DNA of 36,788 bases from Candidatus Moraniibacteriota bacterium (lineage in GTDB: Bacteria; Patescibacteriota; Minisyncoccia; Moranbacterales; UBA1568). Positions 2,388 through 33,207 of this stretch are shown here, piece by piece (the first letter of the stretch is position 1; the number at the start of each line of letters is the position of its first letter). The stretch lies in the NCBI GenBank assembly GCA_043785755.1, contig JAYVWV010000022.1, positions 1 through 36,788 of the forward strand, given 5' to 3'. A program made the translations under genes and the position numbers. The notes beneath the pieces are model-generated. The model made no database searches. It was given only the letters and a program-made list of their open reading frames with translations, and was not told the origin of the DNA.

Positions 2388-3464
2388 ATGATGATTGAAG
2401 AAACGTTGAAAAATTTCAAGGGGCGTCTTGATCCGCTTATCGACGCCTATTTTGATGAAGTCATCAAGGACGCTCGTCAGGAAGACGCTTTCGTCGCCGA
2501 AGCCATTGGATACGCCAAGGATATCGTGCTTTCCGGGGGAAAACGTCTGCGCCCGGCTTTTATGTATTATGGGTATCTGGGGGCGGGCGGTACGGAGGTC
2601 GAAAAGATTCTTCATACCTCGATGAGTATCGAGCTCATTCACTCGTTTCTTCTGGTGCATGATGATATCATCGATCGTGATGATCTGCGGCACGGTGTTC
2701 CGACGCTACACAAACGCTATGCTGATTTTGGGCGGCGTTATTTTCCTGATCAGGACGTTATGCACTTCGGTAATTCCATCGCGCTCATTATCGGCGACAT
2801 GCTCTCAGCTTTCGGCAACGACATCATTTTTCGGGCTGACTTTCCCAAAGAGTGCATCTTCAAAGCCCTCTCCCGTTTGCAGAAGATTGTTTCCTTCACC
2901 GTGGTCGGCCAGGCGCGCGATATCTATATGGAATACCGGGGCGAAGCGAGTGAAGCAGAAATTTTGACCATGTATCGCAACAAGACAGCCAAGTATACGG
3001 TGGAGGGGCCGCTCCATCTAGGAGCTATCCTGGCCGGGGCCACGGATGAACTTTTGACCAGTCTTTCCGCATATGCCATTCCGCTGGGGATTGCTTTTCA
3101 GATACAGGATGATATCTTGGGTATATTCGGTTCTGCTGAACGGATCGGCAAACCGGTCGGTTCCGATATTGAGGAAGGAAAGCTGACACTTTTGGTCGCG
3201 CGCGCCCAGAAGAATGGTTCGTCCGAGCAGGGGAAGCGCCTCAAGGCGATTCTCAAGCGTGGCAAGGCACTTTCGAAGGAAGAGCAGGAGGAATTCCGCA
3301 CCATCATCAAAGAAACAAAGTCCCTCGAACAGGTGCAGGCGCTTGCTTTGGAATATATCGCAGAGGGTCGCCAGGCGCTCGGACAACTGCGCTCACAGGT
3401 CGGGGCGGAGACATTTGAATTTTTGGAAGGGGTGGCAGCGTATATGACCAATCGACAATATTAA
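2388..3464 (+). CDS. Polyprenyl (geranylgeranyl) diphosphate synthase
   Basis: GGKRLRP, HDDIIDRDDLRHG, KTAKYT and QDDILG motifs; ATG at 2388. Confidence 0.93.
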   Translation: MMIEETLKNFKGRLDPLIDAYFDEVIKDARQEDAFVAEAIGYAKDIVLSGGKRLRPAFMYYGYLGAGGTEVEKILHTSMSIELIHSFLLVHDDIIDRDDLRHGVPTLHKRYADFGRRYFPDQDVMHFGNSIALIIGDMLSAFGNDIIFRADFPKECIFKALSRLQKIVSFTVVGQARDIYMEYRGEASEAEILTMYRNKTAKYTVEGPLHLGAILAGATDELLTSLSAYAIPLGIAFQIQDDILGIFGSAERIGKPVGSDIEEGKLTLLVARAQKNGSSEQGKRLKAILKRGKALSKEEQEEFRTIIKETKSLEQVQALALEYIAEGRQALGQLRSQVGAETFEFLEGVAAYMTNRQY

Positions 3465-4298: not shown

Positions 4299-4463
4299 AG
4301 AACCACGTTTTGAAAAATTGCATAGATACGGGAAAAAGAGAGGGTTTGCAAAAGAGCGTCTCAGGAATGAGGATGGAATTGCTTACCAGACAAAGACTTC
4401 TCTGTTTTTGTGTTCTCCTGAGCTTTTGCAGCTCATTTTTCTGTGTCAGACTTCGTCCACAAT

Positions 4464-4685
4464 ATGGCCAACAATAAAGAACTGATTCGGATCGAAGGGG
4501 AGGTCTTGGAGACACTGCCGAGCACCACTTTCCGCGTTCGTCTTGATAACGGTCATGAAGTCCTCGCTCACATCTCGGGCCGTATGCGGGTCCATTACAT
4601 CCGTCTTTTGCCGGGTGATCGCGTAACGCTCGAAATGAGCCCGTACGATCTCTCCAAAGGCAGGATCGTCCATCGTAATAAATAG
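4464..4685 (+). CDS. infA: Translation initiation factor IF-1
   Basis: EGEVLETLP...LAHISGRMR...[19 protein letters not shown]; ATG at 4464. Confidence 0.97.
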
Positions 4686-4836: not shown

Positions 4837-5226
4837 ATGGTACGTATCGCGGGAATCAACATTCCGGACAACAAGCGCATCGAAGTCGCCCTGACCTATG
4901 TCTATGGTATCGGTTTGTCGACCAGTCAGAAGATTTTGAAGGAACTGGCTATCAGCCCGGATACTCGGACCAAAGATCTGTCCGGCGACGATGCCAATCG
5001 TTTGCGCGATATGATCGAAAAGAAGTACCGGGTGGAAGGCGAACTGCGCCACGTGGTCAAGTCCAATATCAAGCGCCTCAAAGAAATTGGTTGTTATCGA
5101 GGAACGCGCCATCAGAAGGGTCTGCCATCGCGCGGTCAGCGTACCAAGACCAATACCCGTACGGTGCGTGGTAATGTCCGTAAGACGATGGGCAGCGGTC
5201 GCAAGAAGTCTGATGCCAAGACCTAA
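4837..5226 (+). CDS. rpsM: 30S ribosomal protein S13
   Basis: [10 protein letters not shown]...[20 protein letters not shown]. Confidence 0.98.
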
Positions 5227-5283
5227 GCAGAATGAACGTCTCGAATATTTTTAAAGAGTAGTCTACTGACTGTAAGCGAACCT

Positions 5284-5742
5284 ATGACAGAAGAAGTGAA
5301 GGCAACCGAAACCCCAAGCGAAGAAGCAGTGACCCCTGTGGTCGCTGCCGAAGATGCGGTGGCTGCCAAAAAGAAGGGGAAGAAAAGTAAGCGTCAGATC
5401 CTCAAGGGTCGCGCCAGCATTCAGTGCACCTATAACAATACTATCGTCACGATCGCCGATCTGAGCGGGGCGGTCTTGGGCTGGTCCAGCTCAGGTCACC
5501 TGGCTTTCAAGGGTGCCAAGAAATCGACACCCTATGCTGCGACTCAAGTAGTAGCTGATGTTACTGAGAAGGTCAAGAAGTACGGTGTCCAAGAATTGGA
5601 AGTGTTCGTGCGCGGCGTCGGCAGCGGCCGCGAGGCATCGATCCGCGCTCTGGCCAACAACGGTTTCAATCTAGTGACTATCAAAGACATCACCCCAATT
5701 CCTCATAACGGTTGCCGTCCGCGTCGTCCGCGTCGCATCTAA
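5284..5742 (+). CDS. rpsK: 30S ribosomal protein S11
   Basis: TYNNTIVT, KKSTPYAA, DITPIPHNGCRP; N-terminal extension. Confidence 0.98.
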   Translation: MTEEVKATETPSEEAVTPVVAAEDAVAAKKKGKKSKRQILKGRASIQCTYNNTIVTIADLSGAVLGWSSSGHLAFKGAKKSTPYAATQVVADVTEKVKKYGVQELEVFVRGVGSGREASIRALANNGFNLVTIKDITPIPHNGCRPRRPRRI

Positions 5743-5758
5743 GACCCATTTCCATACT

Positions 5759-6394
5759 ATGGCCAAAAATCTCAACTCCAAATGCAAACTCTGTCGGCGC
5801 GCCGGCGAAAAACTCTTCTTAAAGGGTGATCGTTGTCTGTCTCCGAAGTGTGCCATGGTGCGTCGTCCCTATGCGCCTGGTATCCACGGTCACAATCCGA
5901 CGCGTGGTGGTGGCAGTGAATATGGCCGTCAGCTCGCTATGAAGCAGAAGATCAAGCGTCTCTACGGCGTCATGGAGCGCCAATTCCGTCATCACTTCGA
6001 TGAAGTGCGCAATGTCCCTGGTGTCACTGGTGATCAGCTCTTGGCTCGCTTGGAGCGTCGTCTCGACAACGTGGTCTACCGCTTGGGCTTTGCTGCCTCA
6101 CGCGTTCTGGCCCGCCAGCTCGTTTCTCACAAGATGTTCGAGGTCAATGGCAAGCGCATGAATATCCCATCCGTCGAAGTGAAGGTGGGCGATATCATCA
6201 CTCTCAAGACCAACAAGAAAGAAAAGACCTATTTCAAGAATCTGCTCGAAGTTTTGAAAAACAAGAAAGACGTGCCGCACTGGCTCGCTCTCGACCTGGA
6301 GAAGCTCTCCGGGACGGTGGTGGCTCTGCCCAACCGTCAGGATGTCGGAGTGCAGGTTGATGCCCAGATGGTCGTTGAATATTACTCCAAGTAG
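5759..6394 (+). CDS. rpsD: 30S ribosomal protein S4
   Basis: CKLCRRAGEKLFLKG, SEYGRQL, LERRLDNVVYRLGFA, VVEYYSK. Confidence 0.98.
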   Translation: MAKNLNSKCKLCRRAGEKLFLKGDRCLSPKCAMVRRPYAPGIHGHNPTRGGGSEYGRQLAMKQKIKRLYGVMERQFRHHFDEVRNVPGVTGDQLLARLERRLDNVVYRLGFAASRVLARQLVSHKMFEVNGKRMNIPSVEVKVGDIITLKTNKKEKTYFKNLLEVLKNKKDVPHWLALDLEKLSGTVVALPNRQDVGVQVDAQMVVEYYSK

Positions 6395-10028: not shown

Positions 10029-13000
10029 ATGCCGAGATTTCAAATAGCCTCATACTTGAGGAAAATACAGAGCGTCAGTCAGGCACTGACGTTTGGTTTC
10101 GGTATTCTTTCCTTTGGTCTGATCATCGGTCTTTCTTTCCAGTTTGTTCGAGCCTGGACCGGACCGGCCGGTGTCCCGCCGAGTGGTAACCTACCTGGAC
10201 CACTCAACACGAGTGCGAATGCCCAGACCAAAGCCGGTCAACTCAGCATCACGGGTGGTGGTAATGTTGCCGCGGGCAGTGTTGGTGGGCTTCGAATCGG
10301 AAACCAGTCGTTCAGTTCCGCTGCAGGGTGGCTCTATCTTGGTGATGCTGCTAACGTGCTGTATCAGGGGCAGGGCATTGCGATGTCAAATTTATGGGTG
10401 GCCAGTGTCAATACACTTGGTCCAGGAGCTTTCATTTCGGACGCGGACGTGGCCGGCGCTTACTTCGTTGATCCCAGCCTCACTTCCAACATGTACATCG
10501 TCAAGCGCTACGGTGGCTTCGATGATGGTGTTGCCGGCGGGGAAGTTGATGTCAATGATCCAACGTACAAAGTCAACCCGAGTGGTGATACCATCCTGAA
10601 ACGCCTGTGTTTGAGTAGCGTCTGTAATGCTGCCTGGCCAGCGGGCAATGTGACTGGCAGCGGGACGATCAACAGGATCCCTCTGTGGACCGGTACCACG
10701 GCTCTGGGTGATTCACCGCTTTCGGCGAGCGGGACCACTGTCACCGCGTCCGGCAATCTTACTGTTAATGGCCTGACGAGTGCTAACGGGAGCTTACTTG
10801 TGAGTGATGGTGGTGGATCGTGGTCCCGTATCTATATGGTTAATGCCGGATCATCGGGTGGTACCAAGTCCATTTATGCTAACTCGAACCTCATCGGTTT
10901 CGTGAATGGAGGTGGAAGCTGGCTGTCTTATTGGGACACTAACGGGAATATGACCAATGCCGGGAGTATTTCTACGGTAAATGGGAGTATTGCGAGTAGT
11001 TCTTATCTCGTAGCCAATGGAGGCGGGCAGCCTTCTTACTTGCGCTACACCCCAGACGGCATAAATTATTACAATTATTTGCGTGGAGATACGTATTTTA
11101 AGGGGAGACTGGTTGACGAGAACAATTCTGGGTACTTCATCGTTCCGAGCGGCACTTCCAACATGTACATCGTCAAGCGCTATGGCGGATATGCTGCCGG
11201 TGGAGAAGTCGATGTCGATGATCCAAGATACAAAGTCGACCCCAGTGGTGATACCATCCTGAATCGCCTGTGTTTGGGTGGTACGTGTCTGTCAGCGATG
11301 CCAGCTGATCCTACCGGGGTCTATCTCCCCTTGGCTGGCGGAACGATGAATGCTGGAGCCACTATCGGTTTCAATGGTGGAACCGCCTACGGGATAGGAG
11401 TACTAGGCAACAAAAACTCAATTTCAGTTGATACGGTAGATTCTGGGAGTGCTTCTGACCCCCTTGAACTCGCTTACTATAATGGTGCTGAAGTAAGAGT
11501 TGGTCAGCCTGGTGGTGGGTTGAGTGTAGCCAATAAACCTATCTACGCCTCAGTGTTCAGTGATGGAAATGATTGGCATTACTATGTCGACCCGAATGGT
11601 GGCAGTCGATTGAATGCTATCTACCCGAACACTATTTGGACACAGTCCCAGGGACAAGTTGCTCAGCGCTGGGATGCGTCTGTTTACGTCCTGGAAGCTG
11701 ACTACTGGTACGCTCACGCCAATGATGGTCGGTCGATGTTATTGGGAGAGAATACAAATAATGTCATCGTGCGTGGCATCCTGACTCCAAGCAGTCTCTG
11801 TCTCAGTAATGGATGTTTGAGTGCCTGGCCAGCGGGCAATGTGACCGGTAGCGGGACGATCAACAGGATCCCTCTGTGGACCGGTACCACGGCTCTGGGT
11901 GATTCACCGCTTTCGGCGAGCGGGGCGAATGTAACCGCGTCCGGTACTTTCACTGCGAACGGCAACGTGATTAATAATCAGCCATCCCAAGGAACCTTGG
12001 GACTCACAGGGGATTTGCCAGGCTATGCCGATGGACTGTACCCTACCCTGAAAACGAACGGAACATACATATATTTCTCGACTGCCGGGGCTTACATTGG
12101 ATACCTTTGGGCCGGGGGGATGGTGGCGTCGACCTTCACTGATTACAACGATCCGCGCTACTCTGTCGACCCGAATGGGACTTCTTACCTTAATAATGTG
12201 CATACGGATGGGTCGGTTCTCTTCGCTGGGTACGGTCATGAAACTTGGTTTCCATACGTCAATGGTTGGAACTACCTGCGCGGTCCGACCAATCTGTGGG
12301 GTGTTCTTTTTGATGAACAGAATAACGGCTATAGACTCGACCTCAACGACTGGTCCAATGCCTACATCTTCTACCGTGCTTACGGCTATAATGGTCCGGA
12401 GCGTGATATTGATAATCCGGGCTACTATCTCGACCCAAGCAGTGTTAGCAATCTCGATACACTGTGTATCAGGGGTACTTGTAAGACGGCCTGGCCAGCT
12501 GATCCTACCGGGTCCTACCTTTCCTTGGCTGGCGGAACGATGAATAGTGGCGCAGTCATTGACAACGCTGGTCGTATGCATATTGCCTCGACGGAGAATA
12601 TCTACCTCCTCGCCAGAGGTGGCACTACCTATGTTTCGGGTGCCTGGGGTGGTGCTGCCAATCTTTTTGTCGATGGCTTTACGACAGCCAACAACGGTTT
12701 GAAAGTCAGTAACGCCGGTGGGGCATACTCATATATTTACATGGCGGATGACCAATCACCGAATGGCGTCAAATACATCCATGCCGATAGTAATTATATT
12801 GGATTTCTCGGTGGCGCCTCTGGCTGGCTGACGCGTTGGGACGAGGCGGGCAATATGGTGAACACCGGGAATATTAATGCCGCCGGAGGCGTCACTGCCA
12901 GTTTCCTTCGGAGTACTGGCAATGTCTATACCGATTGGAACTATGGCTATGGCTTGGTGGGGGTGTATGATTCCTATCGTTATCAGGGAATCTTTGCTAT

Positions 13001-13661
13001 GAGTGATTCCTACAAGCTACCAGCGGATGGCTCTGGTACTGGTAACCTCTATGGCCTAGCCTGGACCCATAGTAATGCGGGCGGACAGTCCAAACCTGGT
13101 CTCGGTCATCAGCTGTTGGTGATGACCAGCGGCACGACGACGGCGGCCATTGGCAATGGTTTTTGGACCAATTATGCTTCCTCTCTCTCGTATATCGCCG
13201 ATACGGATGATCCGGGCTACTATCTCGACCCGAATCAGACTTCTTACCTCAACACTCTCTATGCCAGTGCTTTCTACTATAATTCCGATGAGACCCTCAA
13301 GAAGAATATCGTGACCATCCCGAACGCTCTCGACGACATCCTAGCCCTTCGGGGTGTCCGCTTCAACTGGAAGAGCGATGATACCCTGAGCGTCGGTGTC
13401 ATCGCTCAGGAAGTCGAGAAAGTGTACCCAGAGCTGGTCGCAACCGATGAAAAAACCGGCCTCAAGTCTGTGGAGTACGGCAACCTGGTCGGCCCCATCA
13501 TTGAGGCTATCAAAAGCCTCAATCAGAAGGTAGAGAGTGTGCTGGCACGGAGTGACGTAGCCGAAGAGCGTGCCCTCGAACAAGCGGCCACCATCGCCAC
13601 CCAGCAAAAGGCCATCGAACAATTACAAAGCGAAGTGGAGCTCTTGCGAAGCAATAAATAG
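10029..13661 (+). CDS. Large secreted fibre/adhesin with repeated modules and C-terminal peptidase S74 intramolecular chaperone
   Basis: N-terminal TM plus AWTGP..PP.GN..PLN; repeated Y.(V/L)DP..S.LN and LC.xxxC..AWP motifs; SDETLKKNI...GVIAQEVEKVYPELV then coiled coil. Confidence 0.85.
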   Translation: MPRFQIASYLRKIQSVSQALTFGFGILSFGLIIGLSFQFVRAWTGPAGVPPSGNLPGPLNTSANAQTKAGQLSITGGGNVAAGSVGGLRIGNQSFSSAAGWLYLGDAANVLYQGQGIAMSNLWVASVNTLGPGAFISDADVAGAYFVDPSLTSNMYIVKRYGGFDDGVAGGEVDVNDPTYKVNPSGDTILKRLCLSSVCNAAWPAGNVTGSGTINRIPLWTGTTALGDSPLSASGTTVTASGNLTVNGLTSANGSLLVSDGGGSWSRIYMVNAGSSGGTKSIYANSNLIGFVNGGGSWLSYWDTNGNMTNAGSISTVNGSIASSSYLVANGGGQPSYLRYTPDGINYYNYLRGDTYFKGRLVDENNSGYFIVPSGTSNMYIVKRYGGYAAGGEVDVDDPRYKVDPSGDTILNRLCLGGTCLSAMPADPTGVYLPLAGGTMNAGATIGFNGGTAYGIGVLGNKNSISVDTVDSGSASDPLELAYYNGAEVRVGQPGGGLSVANKPIYASVFSDGNDWHYYVDPNGGSRLNAIYPNTIWTQSQGQVAQRWDASVYVLEADYWYAHANDGRSMLLGENTNNVIVRGILTPSSLCLSNGCLSAWPAGNVTGSGTINRIPLWTGTTALGDSPLSASGANVTASGTFTANGNVINNQPSQGTLGLTGDLPGYADGLYPTLKTNGTYIYFSTAGAYIGYLWAGGMVASTFTDYNDPRYSVDPNGTSYLNNVHTDGSVLFAGYGHETWFPYVNGWNYLRGPTNLWGVLFDEQNNGYRLDLNDWSNAYIFYRAYGYNGPERDIDNPGYYLDPSSVSNLDTLCIRGTCKTAWPADPTGSYLSLAGGTMNSGAVIDNAGRMHIASTENIYLLARGGTTYVSGAWGGAANLFVDGFTTANNGLKVSNAGGAYSYIYMADDQSPNGVKYIHADSNYIGFLGGASGWLTRWDEAGNMVNTGNINAAGGVTASFLRSTGNVYTDWNYGYGLVGVYDSYRYQGIFAMSDSYKLPADGSGTGNLYGLAWTHSNAGGQSKPGLGHQLLVMTSGTTTAAIGNGFWTNYASSLSYIADTDDPGYYLDPNQTSYLNTLYASAFYYNSDETLKKNIVTIPNALDDILALRGVRFNWKSDDTLSVGVIAQEVEKVYPELVATDEKTGLKSVEYGNLVGPIIEAIKSLNQKVESVLARSDVAEERALEQAATIATQQKAIEQLQSEVELLRSNK
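10631..11924 (+). repeat. Intragenic direct repeat, 103 bp, at 10631-10733 and 11822-11924
   Basis: Encodes AWPAGNVTGSGTINRIPLWTGTTALGDSPLSASG twice, 2 nt differences seen; further repeats near 10482/11154 and 11301/12495. Confidence 0.9.
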
Positions 13662-20048: not shown

Positions 20049-20390
20049 AGGTAAGCAATCTAGAAGCCTTTGAGGTAACGGGATTGCTTTTGTTTCTATC
20101 TGTTTTTCTTGAACAGGGTGAAATTTCTTTAACAATTGAGAGCCGTCCAGAAATTTTGCGCACGCAAAGTTCTGGATAAAACAATAAACCCTGCCCGCAA
20201 TACTATACGAAGTATTGTAGGCGGGATAATCACAATTTTTTGTGGTTAGTTCTTACGGAGAACTCTATTCTAAGGCAAGCGAAGAAAGCGGAATTTATTC
20301 CAATTTCCAAGCGAACCGAACACGAATCTGAAAATTTCCGCGCGTGAAGTAGAGCGCGGGAGGTCTGAGCAATCAGACGATTCACATACT

Positions 20391-21950
<1,560 letters not shown>

Positions 21951-22220
21951 TAGGGAGTAAGGTGTACGAATTCTGATCTATGATTAGAATCACAACCATA
22001 TGGTCGTTCACTGCACCATTCTCTGCCGACGTTTCGACGAGAGCAGAGCTAGCAGTGAAAACATATATCTTAGAGAACTCTGTACAGAACTAACCACAAA
22101 AGGTTTTGATTATTGTTTTAATACAGCATACTTGATGGAGCGCTCTTCACTGAGCACTTCCCTGCGAAACCTGCCTCACGGTAGGAGGGAATTTCGTCAG
22201 TATTAGTCAGGCTTTGACGC

Positions 22221-22296
22221 ACGCTATCCCAGGATAAAGGAATTTCCTCTGGTAGCCGTGTAAGACACGGAACCCGCTCACAAGGCGGGTTTTTTG
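22221..22296 (+). repeat. Array repeat R1 (includes 16S terminator)
   Basis: ACGCTATCCCAGGATAAAG...ACACGGAACCCGCTCACAAGGCGGGTTTTTT. Confidence 0.85.
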
Positions 22297-22419
22297 TTTT
22301 TCATCATGCACACAGTATGTCACGACCGTTACTGTGTGTGTGCATTTCTTTTTGGCGCAATTGGATATGATGTTGTACACTATATAGTGTATATAGAGGA
22401 AACATTAAAGTAGAGTCAT

Positions 22420-22755
22420 ATGAAACAAGAGATAGATACAACTAAGAGCTTGGCAATTTTCAGGGGCAAAGAAATTCGTAAGACCATCCATGAAAATGAG
22501 TGGTGGTTTTCAGTTATTGATGTTGTAGAAGCGTTAACTGAAAGCGTTAACGCTCGTGATTATTGGTTCAAAATGAAGATTCGTGTCAAAGAAGAAGATG
22601 GGTTTCAACTGTCGACAGATTGTCGACAGTTGAAATTGCTTGCTCCTGATGGAAAAATGAGAGAAACAGACTGTGCAAATACTGAAGGTATATTTCGTAT
22701 TGTTCAGTCCATCCCGTCCCCCAAGGCCGACACCGTTCATTCCGTTCTGAATTAG
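22420..22755 (+). pseudogene. Bro-N domain protein truncated by IS30
   Basis: IRK...EWWFSVIDVVEALT, QLKLLAPDGKMRETD, RIVQSIPSPKA, then stops inside the IS end instead of continuing EPFK.WLA. Confidence 0.8.
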
Positions 22756-23754
22756 GACACTCTGTTGGAGAGTGTCAGTATGAAAAAGAAATCAAAATTG
22801 CAGCGAGTAGAGCGTCTGGAGATAGCTATCCTCCTTGAGAAGGGGTACTCCCTACGAAAGATAGGAAGAGCCCTGGGACGGAGTCCCAATGCCATCTCGT
22901 ATGAAATACGAGAGAACAGTACCAATGGTGTGTATGACCCTCTGAAAGCCGATGCCAAAGCGAGAGTTCGGAAGAGAATGAGCAAGTACCTGAGGCAGAA
23001 GATAGAAGAGAACGATGCCTTACGAGACTTCATCATCGAAAAGCTCACCCTGCACTGGAATCCTGATGAGGTAGCTGGAAGCATGAGACAGAAAAAGACT
23101 CCCTTCTACGCCTCAAAAACAACCATCTATGAATGGCTGTACAGTGGGAGAGGACAGCAGTATTGTCAGTATCTGTACTCTGAGAGATATCGGAAGAAAC
23201 CGAGAAAAGGTAAGAAAACAGAACGAGTGATGATTCCTGATAGAGTAGGCTTAGACAAACGTTTTCTTGGAGCTACTCATCGTACCAGATATGGTCACTT
23301 TGAAGGAGATACCGTAGTCTCACGAAGAGGCGGAAAAGGAGGGCTTTCTGTGCTCTCAGAACGAAAGAGTCGTCTCCTCATGGTGAGAAAGATTCATTCG
23401 ATGTCACCAACGGAAAACATCAGAAAAATACATGGTATGATGAAACTCCTCAATCTGAAAAGTATCACCTTTGACAACGGGATTGAGAACAAAAAGCATG
23501 CCTTTCTTGGTATCCCCACCTTCTTCTGTGATCCCTACTCCTCCTGGCAGAAGGGAGGAGTGGAGAATGGGAACAAGATGCTTCGGAGATACTTTCCCAA
23601 GGGGACTGACTTCAGAGAAGTCAGTCAAAAGGAGATAAACTCTGCTGTGACATTGATCAATGAAAAACCGAGGAAAATCCTCGGGTAATGGTGTATTGTT
23701 AGGAAAAGATAATCTTTGATTTCATCAGGTGTCCTCATTGAGGGGTGAATTAAG
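22735..23754 (+). mobile_element. IS30-family insertion sequence
   Basis: Imperfect 26-bp inverted repeats at 22735-22760 and 23729-23754 (shared AGGACAC) around a DDE transposase; no clear target duplication. Confidence 0.85.
22780..23688 (+). CDS. IS30-family transposase (C-terminus slightly short)
   Basis: HTH SLRKIGRALGRSPNAISYEIREN; GHFEGDTV, SITFDNG, PYSSWQKGGVENGNKMLRRYFPKG; ends KPRKILG*. Confidence 0.92.
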   Translation: MKKKSKLQRVERLEIAILLEKGYSLRKIGRALGRSPNAISYEIRENSTNGVYDPLKADAKARVRKRMSKYLRQKIEENDALRDFIIEKLTLHWNPDEVAGSMRQKKTPFYASKTTIYEWLYSGRGQQYCQYLYSERYRKKPRKGKKTERVMIPDRVGLDKRFLGATHRTRYGHFEGDTVVSRRGGKGGLSVLSERKSRLLMVRKIHSMSPTENIRKIHGMMKLLNLKSITFDNGIENKKHAFLGIPTFFCDPYSSWQKGGVENGNKMLRRYFPKGTDFREVSQKEINSAVTLINEKPRKILG

Positions 23755-23811
23755 GAAGCCGTTTGTATATGTAGTATACCCATTTTACGAGTTTTGTCAA
23801 TGGTTCTACGG

Positions 23812-23886
23812 ACGCTATCCTAGGATAAAGTTATCTGCCTAGGAGGATAGGGAACCCGCTCACAAGGCGGGTTTTTTGTATTTGAC
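23812..23886 (+). repeat. Array repeat R2
   Basis: ACGCTATCCTAGGATAAAGTTATCTGCCTAGGAGG..GGAACCCGCTCACAAGGCGGGTTTTTTGTATTTGAC. Confidence 0.85.
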
Positions 23887-23934
23887 GGGGAAATCTCTGG
23901 TATACTGAAAAGACAAAATAAGCCGTGTGCCCAT

Positions 23935-25380
23935 ATGAGCCTTATGGCGTTTGAAAAATTCAACCCAGTCGATCCAAAGTATAAAACAACCACGGATCTT
24001 CCTGAAAAACTACAGGGAAATTTTCGAGATGTGTCCGGGGGGTTTGTGCGGAAAGAAGTGGTCCGGTATGAAGAGGGTCTCGGAGCGCGAGCAGAAGAGG
24101 TGTCTCGTTGGGGTCAGCGGGGAGAGTCAGTTACGGTTGATGAGCTACGGGAACAGGACGCTGTGATCACTGATCAGAAAATAGCCGAAGAGGTGAGGCA
24201 GCGCGTTGAGCGACTCGAGGCATCAATTGGTGTACCGCTCTCGGAAGAAGCGAGGCAAGAGATTTATGGCGCGGCTGCTCGTGAGACGTATCTTTCTCCA
24301 CAGGAGATATATGATCAGCACTATGAACAGGGGCAGTTTCTTAATATTCAGATTGAGGAGATCTCTCGAGAAATTGTTGCTCTGTCAGAAGAACAGTTAC
24401 GGGCACTCCCACCCGAAAAAAAGAGAGCAATGCTGGCTCAATTGGGGGAATTTGATCGGTTTGTCCCGGATGCGAAGCGAACGGAAACACTTGATAGCGC
24501 CTCTCAGCGTCTCTTAGAAGGGTATCAACCAAGTGGCGAACTCAAGCAACTCCACCGAGAAGCCCATGGGGCGGTAATGGAGGGCTTTGAGCAGAAAGAA
24601 CTACTTGAGTTTCGGTATAATTGGGGTAGTTATTCGCAGGAAAGAAAACTTTCTCTTTGCCAGAAAGTGGCCGATTTGTTGGCTGTTGCTTATAGACTCG
24701 ATCGGGCTCCTAAAGTCATTATTTCCACCCAACAACCTGAGGATATGAGAGAGACCACTGCCGCTTTTGTTGAGTCAGCGGAGGGAGGGATTGTTTTTGT
24801 TTACAGGCCGGAAGTTATGCTATCAAGCTTCGCTGAAATGGCATCTAATATGTCTCATGAGATGGCTCACGCTCATCAGAAAAAACTTACCAATCAAAGA
24901 GGAGAAGGAGAAGCGAGTAATGGTGCATTCAGAGAGGATGCTTCGTGGTTTCAATTGGATGAAAAATTGGAGCAAACATATGGTAAGGAATTTTATCAAA
25001 ATAATTATTATTCCATAACGAAGGAACAGGATGCTTTTGGCGCACAGGAGGACTTCAAAGCATTTTTTGATAGTCAAATGGATTTGGTGATAAAAAAATG
25101 GGATACTCTCCTCATGGCGAGTGGCCTTTCCTCTGCTCGAGAGATGGGGAATCGCTCTTCTGTTATTATAGAGGCTCAAGAGGCTCTTCAGACGAAGCAG
25201 CCTCAGAATGGGGACGAACTCATAAAGATATTGGAGGACGATTTTCTGGTTTTCCCTCAAGATTCGGAACCTCTCTTTAAGGAGAAAACTCTTGCAGAGT
25301 GTCAGGAAGCGATCCAGAGTTTTGGTGCTATGATGCGAAAAGCCCTCGATCTTTTACCTCGTGACATTCCTGAGGTATAA
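23935..25380 (+). CDS. Acidic protein with HEXXH zincin-like metallopeptidase motif
   Basis: SHEMAHAHQ followed by EQDAF; 481-aa ORF. Confidence 0.7.
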   Translation: MSLMAFEKFNPVDPKYKTTTDLPEKLQGNFRDVSGGFVRKEVVRYEEGLGARAEEVSRWGQRGESVTVDELREQDAVITDQKIAEEVRQRVERLEASIGVPLSEEARQEIYGAAARETYLSPQEIYDQHYEQGQFLNIQIEEISREIVALSEEQLRALPPEKKRAMLAQLGEFDRFVPDAKRTETLDSASQRLLEGYQPSGELKQLHREAHGAVMEGFEQKELLEFRYNWGSYSQERKLSLCQKVADLLAVAYRLDRAPKVIISTQQPEDMRETTAAFVESAEGGIVFVYRPEVMLSSFAEMASNMSHEMAHAHQKKLTNQRGEGEASNGAFREDASWFQLDEKLEQTYGKEFYQNNYYSITKEQDAFGAQEDFKAFFDSQMDLVIKKWDTLLMASGLSSAREMGNRSSVIIEAQEALQTKQPQNGDELIKILEDDFLVFPQDSEPLFKEKTLAECQEAIQSFGAMMRKALDLLPRDIPEV

Positions 25381-25440
25381 GTTTATCTGCTTAGGAGGAC
25401 ACGGAACCCGCTCACAAGGCGGGTTTTTTGTATTTTGACA
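25367..25440 (+). repeat. Array repeat R3
   Basis: ATAAGTTTATCTGCTTAGGAGGACACGGAACCCGCTCACAAGGCGGGTTTTTTGTATTTTGACA; overlaps the stop codon of the upstream gene. Confidence 0.85.
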
Positions 25441-25492
25441 GCGACCTTCGGGGGGGGGTACAATAGAAGAATCTAATCTCTAAGGTTTTATT

Positions 25493-26536
25493 ATGCCGAA
25501 TTTTGAAGACCAAACAACGGGTTCACGGAAGGATGATTTTGAGAAGGCAGAAACGAGTCTGGAAGAGATAAAGAAAACTCAAGTGGGTGATTTGTCATTG
25601 GAAGAATTGCAGGCTTTGGTTGCTAAGCGTCAAGAGCTCTCCGGAGAAAAAGAAACGATTGTGGAAGCCGACCATGAAGAAGCACTTGGTATGGAGGAAG
25701 GTCGCAATGCTGCCATAGCAGAAGCAGCTCAAGTCGAACAGGCGAGGCAAGAGGCAGCAAGACATGCCGAAGAGAAAGCTGCTGCCGAGGCTGCTGACGC
25801 TGCTAGGGCAGAAGCTCTTCTTGCCCAGATTAAGAGTGGAGAGGCACCTCAGGCAGAGGCTGTTGAAGGAAGTACTATTTCGAACCAAGAGCCAATCGAG
25901 GAAAGGCTTGAAGCGCCAAGAACTCCGATGTTTGAGAAGTACGGAAACACTATGCGCCAGGCAGCAGGTGAATTAGTGAAAGTAATGAAAGCGATGGACG
26001 AGAATCAGGAGGCAATAAATTCTGCTCAGTACGGGACTCCAGAAGCGAAGCAGTTGTGGGACGAACAGCAAGCATTGAATGATGAAAGAAATCGGCTGCT
26101 GGATAATGTCACAGGAGGGAATAGGGTCATTGAATTTGAAAATAAATCATCCGTTTGGTCTGAACAAAATAAGTACGAAAGCAGCGAAGTAAGAAAATAC
26201 AAAGCTGCTGCCATGAGCGACCCGAAGACAGTGATGCTTTTAGCGGAGGCTGGCCAGCTTGCTTTGGACTACAGAAGCAGGGAGATCGGTGAATCGCTGA
26301 GTAGTAACGCGGAGTTTATGGCAAAACTTCTCAAATCCTTACCTAATAGGAATGCTGCGCAGTATTTTTGGGCGAGCTGTACTGGTGAGGCAAGAAAGAG
26401 TAGGGAGCTCTACATCGCCGCTGTTCAGAAAAATCATCTGAACTATCAGTTTGGGCCTAAAGAATGGACGACTGATTCAAAAATACAAGAGATTGCGATC
26501 GAGAGCGGGCTCAGTCCGATGTACCTTCAGAAATAA
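25493..26536 (+). CDS. Coiled-coil protein with C-terminal DUF4116-like repeat
   Basis: E/A-rich helical N-half; ELYIAAVQKNHLNYQFGPKEWTTDSKIQEIAI resembles DUF4116. Confidence 0.7.
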   Translation: MPNFEDQTTGSRKDDFEKAETSLEEIKKTQVGDLSLEELQALVAKRQELSGEKETIVEADHEEALGMEEGRNAAIAEAAQVEQARQEAARHAEEKAAAEAADAARAEALLAQIKSGEAPQAEAVEGSTISNQEPIEERLEAPRTPMFEKYGNTMRQAAGELVKVMKAMDENQEAINSAQYGTPEAKQLWDEQQALNDERNRLLDNVTGGNRVIEFENKSSVWSEQNKYESSEVRKYKAAAMSDPKTVMLLAEAGQLALDYRSREIGESLSSNAEFMAKLLKSLPNRNAAQYFWASCTGEARKSRELYIAAVQKNHLNYQFGPKEWTTDSKIQEIAIESGLSPMYLQK

Positions 26537-26569
26537 CTTATCGTACAATAAAAATACTGGTTTAACACA

Positions 26570-26661
26570 CACTAGCCCAGAATAAAGTTTACCCGCCTTG
26601 TATGGCAAGCGTTGTGGGCGGGACGCGGAACCTGCTCACAAGGCGGGTTTTTTGTTTGACT
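26570..26661 (+). repeat. Array repeat R4 (with internal palindromic insertion)
   Basis: CTAGCCCAGAATAAAGTTTA...GGACGCGGAACCTGCTCACAAGGCGGGTTTTTTGTTTGAC. Confidence 0.8.
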
Positions 26662-26853
26662 TTTTGTCCAATTTGTGCAATACTGAGAGACAAGAATATA
26701 TTAGTATGAAGTATCAGAGTATGCGAAAGCAATATCGTCATTGGCATGGATTGAGCTCATTTTGAGGGCTGGTTTTTGCTTTTCTTCTTCAAGAAATTAA
26801 TGACGAGCTCTCCACCGGGGGCTCGTTTTTGTTTCTTCATGCAGGAGTATGTG

Positions 26854-27096
26854 ATGCCGAAAGTTAAGGTGCCCAATCGAAGCTGGCCAGTGTCTGAGTC
26901 GAGAGGTTGGCAACAGTCCACAGAGTTCTTTCGTACTTATCCAACGAGACAGGCGCGCCACGATTTCTACCAGAAGCGCGAAGCACTGAACAGGGCAGTA
27001 CGGGAAGGATGGCGAAATCCCGATGGTTCTCCTCGACCCAATCTTTGTCCCGATCCCTATCATGGGCCACGTACCGAGTCAATGGGCGCCTGGTAG
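26854..27096 (+). CDS. Small basic hypothetical protein (80 aa)
   Basis: AGGAG SD at 26843-26847 before ATG 26854; followed by a terminator-like hairpin. Confidence 0.55.
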   Translation: MPKVKVPNRSWPVSESRGWQQSTEFFRTYPTRQARHDFYQKREALNRAVREGWRNPDGSPRPNLCPDPYHGPRTESMGAW

Positions 27097-27154
27097 TTTT
27101 ATAAGCGTCAATGAACGTTTGGTCAGTTTTCTTATGGGAGCTGGCTTTTTTATT

Positions 27155-27183
27155 TTGACAATGATTCTCTCTAGTATTATAGT
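27155..27183 (+). promoter_or_regulatory. Promoter of the PemK-like gene (TTGACA-17-TATAGT)
   Basis: Consensus boxes 30 bp upstream of ATG 27213. Confidence 0.7.
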
Positions 27184-27212
27184 ATATGTAAGTATAGTAA
27201 ACATATAAAGAT

Positions 27213-27611
27213 ATGAAGGAATATAGTAAGGATTTTGATCGGTGGAATGAGAAGAAGAAACAGACCGACGGAAAATCAATAGACCGAGATCTCTTCTTGC
27301 ATGAGCGCGAGGTGTGGTGGTGTGCCATTGGGGTGAATATCGGCGTTGAAATCGATGGAAAACATGATGATTTCAAACGACCAGTGCTCCTAATAATGAA
27401 GTTCAATGGGCTCATGTTCTGGGGAATCCCTCTAACACCCAAAGCAAAAGAAAATCCTTATATTGTAAAAGCCGAACATTCGAAAGGGGTATCGTATGCT
27501 AATTTTTCGCAGTTAAGGCTATGGAGTTCCAAGCGGGTCTTGCGAAAGGTGGGAGTGATTTCGGAGGAGGGCTTTGCCGAAGTGCTCAAGCGCTTGAAAA
27601 ATCTTTTCTAA
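27213..27611 (+). CDS. PemK/MazF-like endoribonuclease toxin (CPR type)
   Basis: KDFDRWNEKKK, EREVWWCAIGVNIGVEIDGK..FKRPVLL, GIPLT, SQLRLWSSKRV. Confidence 0.85.
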   Translation: MKEYSKDFDRWNEKKKQTDGKSIDRDLFLHEREVWWCAIGVNIGVEIDGKHDDFKRPVLLIMKFNGLMFWGIPLTPKAKENPYIVKAEHSKGVSYANFSQLRLWSSKRVLRKVGVISEEGFAEVLKRLKNLF

Positions 27612-27663
27612 AAAAATCGGACCCACCATTGCTGGTGAGTCCTCGGAGGCCGAAGCCACTAAT
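27610..27663 (-). ncRNA. Candidate small RNA convergent on the PemK-like gene
   Basis: Minus-strand TTGACA-16-TACACT promoter (27697-27670), GGC-UUCG-GCC hairpin, 10-bp GCAA-capped hairpin with G-U pair, U7 tract. Confidence 0.55.
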
Positions 27664-27706
27664 AAATATAGTGTACACTATATTCACAGTCTGTCAAGGC
27701 AGTCAG

Positions 27707-27795
27707 GGAATTTCCTTTGGTAGCCGTGTAAGCTTGCCTGCTTGGGGCGGGACACAGAATCCGCTTCGCCAGCTGGCGGACGGGTTTTTTGTATT
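27707..27795 (+). repeat. Array repeat R5 (R1-like, two palindromic insertions)
   Basis: GGAATTTCCTTTGGTAGCCGTGTAAG..ACACAGAATCCGCT..CGGGTTTTTTGTATT. Confidence 0.8.
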
Positions 27796-27934
27796 TCTTT
27801 GCGCACACAGCACCTAACGGTCGCCCGCCTAGACGTCGAGGCTGGTGGTATAGTGTGTGCATAATTTTTTGACGTAATTATGTATTGTGTTGTATAACAA
27901 GTAGTGTATATAGAGTAAACATTAGACCAAAGCT

Positions 27935-28906
27935 ATGCCAAAGAAAACAATACAAAGGGGCGCAGTAATCTATCAGGCCAAGTCCGGGGCGATTGAGCTA
28001 AAGGGTGATTTTAGTAAAGAAACGCTCTGGGCGACCCAGGCGCAGATAAGTAAAATCTTTGGTGTTGAGAGGTCGGTTGTCACAAAGCATATCAATAATA
28101 TCCTCAAGTCGCAGGAAATTGACCAAAAAAGCAATGTGCAAAAAATGCACATTGCAAATTCGGATAAACCAGCCGCTTTTTACTCGCTAGATCTGATTTT
28201 GGCAGTGGGGTACAGAACAAACTCTTCGCGAGCTATTCTTTTCAGAAGGTGGGCTACGGGAATACTGCGTAAGTATCTGGTAGATGGCTATACCATCAAT
28301 CGGTCGCGCATTGGGCAGAATTATGACGTCTTTATGGAGGCCGTAGCCGATGTCCGGGCACTGTTGCCTGCCAGTATGCAGAGTGATACCGGCAGCACCT
28401 TAGAGTTGGTCCGGGTGTTTTCCGATACCTGGATGTCACTCGATGCCTACGACAAAGAGTCTCTCGACCTGAGGAAGCCAACCAAGAAAAAGGTGGCTTT
28501 GACGGGGGCGAAGTTGGCTGAGAGCGTCAGTGTCTTGAAAGGGGAGTTGATACGAAAAGGCGAGGCGACCGATCTCTTTGCTACCGAACGGAATAGAGAA
28601 GCGCTCGAGGGAATTGTAGGGAATGTCATGCAGGCGATGGGCGGACAGGATTTGTATCCGAGTATCGAGGGGAAAGCTGCTCATCTCCTCTACTTTATTG
28701 TGAAAAATCATCCCTTTGTCGATGGCAACAAGCGGACGGGTGCCTATGCGTTTATTTGGTTTTTACATCAGGCCAGAGTATTAGATCGGGAACGACTTTC
28801 GCCGACAGCACTGACCGCTATCACGCTCCTCATCGCCGAGAGTAACCCCAAGGACAAAGACAAAATGGTCAAACTCGTTATGATGCTCATTGGGAAAAAG
28901 AGATGA
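27935..28906 (+). CDS. RhuM/Fic-Doc family fusion protein
   Basis: RhuM-like TLWATQAQIS..YSLDLILAVGYRTNS..FRRWA; Fic motif HPFVDGNKRTG. Confidence 0.9.
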   Translation: MPKKTIQRGAVIYQAKSGAIELKGDFSKETLWATQAQISKIFGVERSVVTKHINNILKSQEIDQKSNVQKMHIANSDKPAAFYSLDLILAVGYRTNSSRAILFRRWATGILRKYLVDGYTINRSRIGQNYDVFMEAVADVRALLPASMQSDTGSTLELVRVFSDTWMSLDAYDKESLDLRKPTKKKVALTGAKLAESVSVLKGELIRKGEATDLFATERNREALEGIVGNVMQAMGGQDLYPSIEGKAAHLLYFIVKNHPFVDGNKRTGAYAFIWFLHQARVLDRERLSPTALTAITLLIAESNPKDKDKMVKLVMMLIGKKR

Positions 28907-29092
28907 CGGCCTGCCAGAAATGTTTCGCATATGTGATGCGGACGGGACACAAAATATGCCTCAGACTGGTTTTTTCTTTTGCTACGATACAAATCTACTT
29001 ACGGTCGTGAGAAAACTTGTATAGTACATGAGATGGCTTGGGTTGACACCTGGATCTATTCTTGCCAAACTAAGGGAAAGTTAATTTTCGAC

Positions 29093-29689
29093 ATGACTAT
29101 GAAAAAGATACTCTTACTCGATGCAGATGGGGTGACGATCGTGCCACGAGAGAAATATTTTTCTGACCGATACTCGGAAGAATTTGGTGTGTCTAAGGAT
29201 TTGATCATGCCTTTTTTCAAGAACGAATTTAATGATTGTCTTGTTGGGAAGCGAGAAGTGAGCGAGGTTTTTGCGGAACAGAATATGCTCGAAAAGTGGG
29301 GTTGGAAAGAGACGCTTCCAGAATTGTTTCAGTATTGGTGGGCGGGGGAGAAAACCCGCTTCGAAGAGGTGCTGGCCGTGGTCAGGGAACTGCGGGCACA
29401 GGGGGTCAAATGCTATCTGGCGACCGACCAAGAGAAGAACCGGGCCGAATATATCATGCACGGTATGGGGCTGGCTCAGGATTTGGATGGGGCGTTTTTC
29501 TCATACCAGTTGGGGGCGCGGAAGACCGACCCGGAGTATTGGGAGAAGGTTTTGGTGGAGCTTGGCAATCCTCACCCATCGGATGTCGCGTTCTGGGATG
29601 ATGACGAGGAAAATGTCGCGGTGGCCAAAGCTGCCGGCATCGCTGCTCATTTTTTCACGAACTTCGAGGACTTTAAAAAATCAGTATAA
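29093..29689 (+). CDS. HAD-family phosphatase
   Basis: LLLDADG motif I, LATD, RKTDP, FWDDDEENV..A..AG. Confidence 0.88.
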   Translation: MTMKKILLLDADGVTIVPREKYFSDRYSEEFGVSKDLIMPFFKNEFNDCLVGKREVSEVFAEQNMLEKWGWKETLPELFQYWWAGEKTRFEEVLAVVRELRAQGVKCYLATDQEKNRAEYIMHGMGLAQDLDGAFFSYQLGARKTDPEYWEKVLVELGNPHPSDVAFWDDDEENVAVAKAAGIAAHFFTNFEDFKKSV

Positions 29690-32538: not shown

Positions 32539-33207
32539 ATGAAACAAAATTCCATGCAGATTCTTACCCCAAAACAGCGCATCGTTCTTCAGGCGATCAA
32601 GCAGTTTTTTTCGGAAAACGGTACCATGCCGACGGTCCGTGAGATCCAGTCAGTGTCTAACTCTCTGGGCTTAAAGTTGAAAAGTTTGCGCAGTTTTTTC
32701 ATCTACCTCAATGAGTTGGAAGAGAAGGGCTATATTGAGCGTACCTCAGAAGATCGCGGTATCAAGCTGAAGGGGATCACCAAGGACAGCTTCTTGGATG
32801 TCCCCGTCTTTGGAATGGCCAATGCCGGAGCAGCCACGATGTTTGCTGATCAGTATATCGAGGGTTTTCTCAAGGTTTCTAAGCGCATCGTGCGTGATAG
32901 TCGCAATGTTTTCGCTATCCAGGTTTCGGGGACGTCCATGAACAAGGCTCGGGTCAACGGCAAGACTATTCAGAACGGGGATTTCATCTTGGTGGATTCG
33001 ACCTGGAAGCACTATAACAACGGGGACCGGGTGCTGGTCGTCATTAACGGCATGGCCACGGTCAAAACCTATCGCACGGTCGATGGCAAGAACATCGTTC
33101 TTTTGCCGGAATCGACCGAGAAGAAGCACAAACCGATTTTCCTCACTGAAGAGGATGACTTCGTCATCAATGGCAAGGTTATCGATGTGCTCAAGCTGCA
33201 CGCCTGA
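32539..33207 (+). CDS. lexA: LexA-like repressor (wHTH plus S24 peptidase)
   Basis: LTPKQ..VL, PTVREI, LEEKGYIER; A-G cleavage site (NAGA), GTSM serine and ATVK lysine. Confidence 0.88.
   Translation: MKQNSMQILTPKQRIVLQAIKQFFSENGTMPTVREIQSVSNSLGLKLKSLRSFFIYLNELEEKGYIERTSEDRGIKLKGITKDSFLDVPVFGMANAGAATMFADQYIEGFLKVSKRIVRDSRNVFAIQVSGTSMNKARVNGKTIQNGDFILVDSTWKHYNNGDRVLVVINGMATVKTYRTVDGKNIVLLPESTEKKHKPIFLTEEDDFVINGKVIDVLKLHA

Follow-up and report, generated by a model that had tools for sequence, protein, structure and literature searches.

The DNA downstream of the 16S rRNA gene (rrs) in this genus of Candidatus Moraniibacteriota is probably a genus-wide hotspot for the insertion and exchange of accessory DNA, anchored on the 3' trailer of rrs. 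The window, i.e. the whole stretch of 36,788 nucleotides that was analysed (contig JAYVWV010000022.1 of assembly GCA_043785755.1), is one of the 61 contigs of a genome of 834 kb (G000; other G numbers are relatives' genomes, and L numbers are fetched loci or contigs). The 23S rRNA gene is found on a separate contig (G000:C7:6-2670), with other DNA upstream of it, so that rrs is unlinked. Beyond rrs, copies of a repeat, here called R, partition an array of co-oriented, unrelated gene units. A first-pass annotation of this DNA had described five such copies, and this description holds, with four copies of a shared terminator core and a diverged fifth (R5); a sixth (R6) is added here. The first copy, R1, ends the 16S transcription unit, and the DNA that follows it differs between relatives, with both empty and filled sites among the variants.

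Repeat R and the end of the 16S transcription unit

The 16S gene, its trailer and the copies of R are arranged as follows.

20391-21949, + strand: 16S rRNA gene (rrs); Rfam SSU_rRNA_bacteria, 1397.7 bits
21950-22213, + strand: 16S 3' trailer (about 270 bases), between rrs and R1
22214-22299, + strand: R1; trailer hairpin A/B with loop GATAAAGGAATTTC, linker GTGTAAGACAC, terminator hairpin D, T-tract
23808-23883, + strand: R2; module A and an exact D, with a different 3' strand in between which still pairs with A; z -3.3
25367-25435, + strand: R3; exact D; overlaps the stop codon of unit 2
26570-26657, + strand: R4; degenerate module A, C hairpin TTTACCCGCC..GGGCGGG, D with 1 mismatch
27707-27792, + strand: R5; module B, short C hairpin, diverged terminator
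28909-28975, + strand: R6; C hairpin, degenerate terminator; directly after the RhuM-Fic stop codon

R is modular. Module A is ACGCTATCCCAGGATAAAG, module B is GAATTTCCTCTGGTAGyyGTGTAAG, and module D is the terminator hairpin ACGGAACCCGCTCACAAGGCGGG followed by Ts; modules C and C' are optional small hairpins of the form yTTrCCyGCC...GGGnGGG. R1 is composed of A+B+D, R4 of A+C+D, R5 of B+C+D', and R6 of C and a degenerate D, while R2 and R3 begin with A or an A-like strand, followed by a different strand that pairs with it and by D. R3 and R2 share 92% identity across 59 bases. The 26-base B block (GGAATTTCC..GTAGCCGTGTAAG) in R5 matches R1 at 25 of 26 positions, and the terminator hairpins of these two copies differ. 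R1, R2 and R3 each fold into a hairpin plus a terminator (z -3.3 to -4.0; for R1, -33.8 kcal/mol and z -4.0). R6 folds poorly (z +0.9), and its C hairpin is homologous to that of the second copy of the repeat in G009.

The 27-base terminator core, GGAACCCGCTCACAAGGCGGGTTTTTT, occurs exactly at 22269, 23851 and 25403, and with one mismatch at 26627. No match with ≤3 mismatches appears in 100 dinucleotide shuffles of the window, and none beyond these four copies in the 61 contigs of the genome at ≤5 substitutions. Modules A, B and D are likewise found in G000 at this locus only. As read in the first-pass annotation, the T-tracts of R2, R3 and R4 lead straight into promoter-like TTGAC boxes, and R3 overlaps the preceding stop codon (unit 2 ends at 25380, within R3, with the repeated sequence starting at 25377); promoters and terminators are here consensus matches only.

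R1 had also been proposed as the 16S terminator. The locus downstream of rrs was fetched from 26 relatives (the genus comprises 50 genomes, 27 of which match the trailer), and R1 lies downstream of the 16S gene and spacer in 23 genomes. An alignment of 24 sequences from these 23 genomes, leaving out G026 and G019 (extra loop hairpin), G020 and G017 (R1 absent from the fetched contigs) and the truncated contig C121 of G036, has a nearly invariant loop GATAAAGGAATTTC and linker TGTAAGAC. Seven pairs of the A/B helix have compensatory changes, and 93.1% of the cells are paired, as against 42-50% when the partners are slid; none of 500 shuffles reaches the observed values. R1 is the functional end of the 16S transcript, consisting of a covarying hairpin and a predicted intrinsic terminator. 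At least three sequence types of terminator are present in the genus. The trailer spacer in relatives is 81-84% identical. With the trailer as query, bases 22071-22113 gave a minus-strand self-match to leader positions 20226-20267; the two segments are complementary and likely form a processing stem. A tRNA relic within the trailer was rejected, as Rfam calls no tRNA there.

The repeat is confined to the rrs locus across the genus as well, rather than being an ordinary terminator or palindrome scattered over the genome, the possibility that the first-pass annotation had itself raised. Whole-genome pattern scans (≤3 mismatches) find the type 1 core in 10 of 61 genomes, i.e. G000 and 9 of 36 of the same genus, with none in 24 genomes of other families. 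The type 3 terminator occurs at 10 places in 7 of the 50 genus genomes, and type 2 at 6 places in 6. All scan matches are on contigs with the rrs trailer or with genes syntenic to those downstream of rrs, except for an unplaced 2.4-kb contig (G020:C12). Extra copies match the genome they are in as regards terminator type, but a single contig of G020 has both type 1 and type 2.

Outside the genus, the exact 27-mer is found in the genome collection only in two Rheinheimera species (L103, L104), and in the viral collection in four contigs (L093-L096), in both cases with unrelated flanks and, in the viral contigs, without the A/B module. Chance seems an unlikely explanation for these matches, yet no link to the rrs locus was found, and Rheinheimera is treated as unrelated. 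The A/B loop pattern is absent from the viral contigs, and the viral collection yielded no phage-borne copy of R. The 16S-end pattern matched two viral contigs, both of which were set aside: one is a chance match, and the other has the 16S / tRNA-Ile / integrase layout of another lineage, with an integrase 25% identical to that of G024.

Variable DNA between conserved ends

The distance from R1 to lexA, the conserved gene downstream, ranges from 2.7 to 35.4 kb among 18 genomes, and the content of this zone differs between the copies of the repeat, as would be seen at the accretion site that the first-pass annotation had suggested; the identical gene content and order in relatives that would have contradicted it is not what is seen. 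G002 and G016 are 99% identical through R1, then have unrelated DNA of 2.5 and 3.5 kb until homology resumes. A distal flank, ACCACG..CGACGGTGGTTGAC (present in 3 of 30 oriented loci), directly follows R1 in G069, which is an empty site; in G009 an open reading frame (ORF) of 156 amino acids (aa) and a second copy of the repeat precede it, and in G026 two ORFs (204 and 525 aa) and a second copy do so. A scan of metagenomes gave 15 matches, 12 of which were judged by eye to be in the trailer context of this genus, and three contigs with two copies. Up to the TTTTTTGT of R1, the contigs L121, L114 and L122 share 99.7-100% identity across 293-296 bases, and they diverge right after it. From this point, L122 is empty and runs directly into the distal flank, in L121 a 130-aa ORF and an A-C'-B-C'-D copy precede the same flank, and L114 has a 100-aa membrane ORF followed by another second copy. 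In total, a duplicated trailer occurs downstream of rrs at 9 of the 26 loci examined, and in G020. The R2 of another metagenome contig, L127, has a C-D part of the R1 type, which could reflect gene conversion or an assembly chimera.

The unit carrying a PemK toxin gene is fourth in the window, first in G016 (80% DNA identity) and second in G033. The PemK protein is 82-86% identical in G016, G033 and G064. Ten further ORFs from relatives and metagenome contigs were searched, and seven of them have no Pfam family; of the remaining three, one is a PAS-GAF protein, one is an amino-acid kinase that also has a PUA domain, and one is SecDF-head/transglutaminase-like. The toxin and effector cargo of the first-pass annotation is therefore one part of a wider range, represented in the window by PemK and Fic/Doc. 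In G005, a 112-base copy (97%) from the middle of the trailer follows the amino-acid-kinase/PUA gene.

The locus was examined in 25 genomes, and in 24 of them no integrase adjoins it. In the remaining genome, G024, two tyrosine integrases (30% identical to each other) lie 3-5 kb past R1 and are followed by AAA_25, a D12 methylase, ParB_N and TerL. They form part of a prophage-like block of ∼23 kb (G024:C1 ∼425116-448431; L063 and L091) between direct repeats of 202 bases (96%). At its start this repeat has the final 12 bases of the 16S gene, and it continues into the trailer; a second similar block covers the next terminator. G024 provides a precedent for enzymatic insertion with the rrs trailer as target.

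G000 itself has a single tyrosine recombinase, of Xer size, on contig C59 (Phage_integrase search), and Xer-sized tyrosine recombinases are encoded in 48 of the 50 genus genomes. No serine recombinase and no IS110-type or Y1 transposase was found in G000, and the ORFs flanking the array match other families or none. The first-pass statement that the window lacks an integrase and attC architecture is borne out: pairs of attC-type cores (RYYYAAC / GTTRRRY, 40-140 bases apart) number zero on either strand of 22201-29000.

Cargo units, neighbouring genes and small repeats

The units of the array, the genes beyond it and two kinds of small element are listed below.

22420-22755, + strand: unit 1, truncated Bro-N gene, 111 aa; Pfam Bro-N 5.4e-9
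22736-23753, + strand: IS30-family insertion sequence; transposase ORF 22765-23688; NCBIfam transpos_IS30 8e-60
23935-25380, + strand: unit 2, 481-aa protein with a HEMAH motif; no known family
25493-26536, + strand: unit 3, 347-aa protein; promoter-like site 25435-25464
26854-27096, + strand: unit 4a, 80-aa ORF; terminator-like hairpins 26802-26827 and 27121-27146
27143-27700, + strand: unit 4b, PemK/MazF-like module; gene 27213-27611, promoter-like site 27155
27935-28906, + strand: unit 5, RhuM-Fic/Doc protein; Pfam Virulence_RhuM 8.4e-17, Fic 6.6e-13
28979-29689, + strand: HAD-type hydrolase, first gene past the array; Pfam Hydrolase 1e-12
32539-33207, + strand: LexA, conserved downstream anchor of the variable zone; Pfam Peptidase_S24 and LexA_DNA_bind
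22390-22420, 27185-27205 and 27900-27925: promoter/leader sites with TATGTAAGTnnnGTAAACA; also in oriented loci of G005 (4430-4490), G019 (3195-3250) and G064 (2575-2640)
22308-22345: palindrome resembling repetitive extragenic palindromic (REP) elements, between R1 and unit 1
∼27801-27862: longer variant of this palindrome, between R5 and unit 5
Elsewhere in G000: same palindrome at C17:6378, C19:4178, C35:45923 and 45210-45249, C42:12464, C59:305 and 369

The cargo of the window is in part of toxin type (PemK, Fic/Doc-RhuM), in part of phage type (the Bro-N fragment and IS30) and in part without a family. Profile matches agree with the Bro-N, IS30, PemK and RhuM-Fic identities given in the first-pass annotation; its DUF4116-like label for the 347-aa protein is not retained, as this protein has no Pfam, NCBIfam or PHROG match and the DUF4116 lead from the Atlas is sub-threshold, at 0.76. 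The Bro-N gene is a fragment, covering positions 6-104 of the 274 of profile phrog_15286, and is cut by IS30, the inverted ends of which (22736-22760 / 23729-23753) are 72% complementary. A second IS30 transposase fragment is present at a contig end (G000:C51:2-106), so the insertion sequence of unit 1 probably has at least one further copy. The 481-aa protein of unit 2 has no Pfam, NCBIfam or PHROG match, is encoded in none of the 49 other genus genomes, and has four homologues in a search of 5.8 billion clusters; the Atlas leads to putative metallopeptidases (0.92-0.93). The 80-aa ORF of unit 4a is equally without a match in Pfam, NCBIfam or PHROG.

The PemK gene matches Pfam PemK_toxin (8.8e-8) and is MazF-like by PHROG; no antitoxin ORF neighbours it. 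The 3' tail of the module contains a hairpin with a T-run (27642-27619) and a convergent, minus-strand promoter-like site (27697-27670), which could together yield a short antisense RNA. The whole module is kept in four genomes and four contexts (the window, L029:348-869, G033 oriented 5200-5760, and L083:1430-1990). The 5' regions of unit 5 (27853-27945) and unit 1 (22336-22428) are 72% identical, and the motif TATGTAAGTnnnGTAAACA occurs in a promoter/leader common to PemK, Bro-N and RhuM genes of several species. Since lexA is just downstream of the variable zone, this motif may be an operator and is put forward as a candidate. LexA is 76-93% identical at the amino-acid level in 17 relatives, and the HAD-type hydrolase is at the same locus in five (G009, G011, G063, G072 and G036, by tblastn).

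Two kinds of small hairpin were seen next to copies of R. The REP-like palindrome, of ∼38 bases (GCACACAG..CACGACCGTTAC..GTGTGTGC), is a genome-wide element separate from R. The small hairpin GTTTACCCGCCnnnnGGnGGG, which decorates distal copies of R, is also present at 12 places in 10 genus genomes (L149-L167), and in G000 outside the array at C35:26537 and C18:17; a reversed-pattern control gave no matches. Several copies adjoin tRNA-Gly(CCC) or tRNA-Ile genes, within tRNA-like sequence that is called by neither ARAGORN nor Rfam, raising the question of whether they are mini-insertions in RNA genes. The C hairpins were considered as cassette recombination sites and rejected as the main explanation, the same hairpin type being found at non-rrs places.

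Other observations concern single loci. In G005 (oriented locus 936-1720), the 3' end of the 16S gene looks, by eye, interrupted between ..ATCACCTCC and TTTCTAGGGAG, with a 225-aa ORF just upstream of the apparent break; this may be an insertion within the 16S gene. A reverse-transcriptase domain (E 2.1e-20), the only one found in the genome, belongs to a 354-aa ORF at G000:C17:29718-30332 (- strand), far from the array. Elsewhere in the window (10029-13661), a 1210-aa protein with internal repeats (∼660-1190 bases) and a C-terminal Peptidase_S74 (endosialidase chaperone) domain resembles, in its predicted domains, a phage tail-fibre or surface protein.

Possible origins of the array

Under the preferred explanation, that of a hotspot anchored on the rrs trailer, incoming DNA would recombine with the trailer, and the insert would end up between two trailer copies. 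The copy proximal to rrs would stay clean, and the distal copy would decay and gain small hairpin inserts. Repeated events, with loss and swapping between copies, would produce an array of promoter-gene-terminator units, the units being remnants or cargo of earlier insertions and the repeats being duplicated target left by recombination. The crossover would most likely be in or next to terminator D, because no other uninterrupted identity between copies is as long as D (29-36 bases), and a crossover there would give a clean proximal and a decorated distal copy. The enzyme could be either host RecA, acting on taken-up DNA or excised circles, or the integrases of incoming elements, as in G024; genes for RecA and ComEC are present in G000. 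Different parts of the trailer are duplicated in different genomes, a pattern better explained by homology on the incoming DNA than by one fixed core site.

Several observations weigh against a trailer-anchored hotspot. Apart from the IS30 transposase there is no recombinase within the window, DprA was not found in G000, and the identity tracts, at 26-39 bases, are close to the shortest on which RecA recombines. Distal copies differ between loci in how far they reach at the 5' end, and the trailer segment duplicated in G024 and G005 is not the one repeated in the window. There is no copy of R between the 80-aa ORF and PemK, and in G064 the PemK unit lies outside the rrs locus and has no copy of R, so that some movement is independent of the repeat. 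For this strain, the k-mer contigs, which break at R1-R3, revealed neither circles nor other unit orders nor empty junctions, with no joint between copies of R reported, and all sequences analysed are metagenome assemblies.

Some features would suit a dedicated cassette system, in which a recombinase supplied in trans treats R as an attI/attC-like site and cassettes tailed by R are inserted and excised after TTTTTTGT. Such a system would be integron-like, or similar to Xer-dependent dif modules, which 11-6-11 Xer binding sites flank, its enzyme being the lone Xer-like protein or one missing from the assembly. In every comparison the cassette boundaries are at one fixed point after the T-tract, and the 27-base core, loop included, is invariant in 10 species whose spacers are 81-84% identical; moreover, the copies are confined to one locus, the distal ones are structured, and nearly all genus genomes encode the Xer-sized enzyme. 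However, homology that ends at the T-tract would equally give a fixed 3' boundary, and homology accounts better than a fixed core for the variable 5' extent and for the other trailer segments duplicated in G024 and G005. The near-absence of integrases beside the locus, the lack of attC-type core pairs and the promoter-like site of each unit also speak against it, as does a motif search beside 20 xer genes: the 12-mers recovered (conserved at 17 of 20) look like the promoter/leader of a neighbouring gene, with nothing R-like. Cassette capture at the rrs terminator by a trans-acting recombinase such as the lone Xer-like protein is considered unlikely. The accretion and swapping at the 3' end of rrs proposed in the first-pass annotation stand as a description, and its term "integron-like" applies as an analogy of layout, not as a mechanism.

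It is also doubtful that the copies are passive, i.e. that slippage, unequal crossing-over or gene conversion made local duplicates of a good terminator and trailer, and that unrelated indels or transposons brought in the cargo. Copies are indeed kept alike within a genome, L127 compared with G026 shows a possible conversion of R2 to the R1 type, IS30 sits in the array, and the PemK unit moves without R. Against this, empty and filled sites share a flank, with the second copy exactly at the distal end of the cargo (G069/G009/G026; L121/L122), and different cargo in near-identical backgrounds begins at the same base. The two terminator types on one contig of G020 suggest import, and the G024 prophage is bounded by trailer repeats. 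Chimeric joins induced by repeats in a metagenome bin are a very improbable source of the array. Five DNA runs from two studies, three of which may be the source of this DNA, contain the stretch, while no RNA run was listed for it; the public k-mer contigs of these DNA runs end at R1, R2 and R3, so that the unit order rests on the original assembler. On the other hand, identical stretches are ≤36 bases (for R2/R3, 92% over 59), shorter than the reads, every unit has similar depth in three runs, one contig spans R4 and R5, and comparable arrays are found in eight other genomes and in independent metagenome contigs.

Among known systems, the tandem genomic islands and prophages found at tRNA and transfer-messenger RNA genes are alike in using a conserved structural RNA gene, at its 3' end, as target, and in that direct repeats bound the insert, the proximal copy keeps the gene intact, serial events build arrays, and the cargo is accessory (toxins, phage-type genes); the integrase-bearing prophage of G024, between repeats of the 16S end, is a further likeness. 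Here, however, the target is the trailer/terminator of an unlinked 16S gene, the units are single genes of 0.6-1.6 kb without integrases, and the distal copies have extra small hairpins. Integrons share the one-directional array of unrelated single-gene units, structured repeats, a fixed anchor and cargo differing between relatives, but there is no intI and there are no attC cores here, and the repeats are copies of the anchor itself. Furthermore, integron cassettes are mostly promoterless and served by a common promoter, in contrast to the promoter-like sites after R2, R3 and R4 and before PemK, and to the terminators. In the minimal mobile elements of Neisseria, cassettes that lie between conserved flanking genes are exchanged through transformation and homologous recombination. 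These elements resemble the present locus in conserved flanks (16S and the LexA region), differing whole-gene cassettes and the lack of an associated recombinase, with RecA and ComEC present; unlike them, the locus has internal flank repeats that partition the cassettes, and DNA uptake by this organism is putative. Insertion of Tn7-type elements downstream of glmS (attTn7) likewise uses a safe harbour past the terminator of an essential conserved gene and can accumulate tandem inserts, but the window showed neither genes for Tn7-like transposition nor the ends of such an element, a genome-wide search not having been made. Unlike REP elements and bacterial interspersed mosaic elements, copies of R are not scattered intergenically. 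No description of a comparable rrs-linked hotspot was found in the literature at the level of abstracts, so an earlier description is possible; passages of PMC12455944 do not mention one either.

Genomes of Candidatus Moraniibacteriota are smaller than 1.2 Mb, and their routes of gene gain are poorly known. The array explains assembly breaks just past the 16S gene, and the cargo beside this gene can be used to tell strains apart. For genetic work in these uncultured lineages, the locus also offers a landing pad that is both natural and conserved. Should trans-acting capture be correct after all, improbable as it appears, these tiny, symbiont-type bacteria would possess an integron-like device for sampling genes, anchored on the most conserved gene. 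If the trailer-anchored hotspot is real, it would explain where such genomes keep their strain-specific accessory genes, such as toxins and phage-type genes, and the end of an rRNA gene would join the RNA-gene targets used by integrating DNA.

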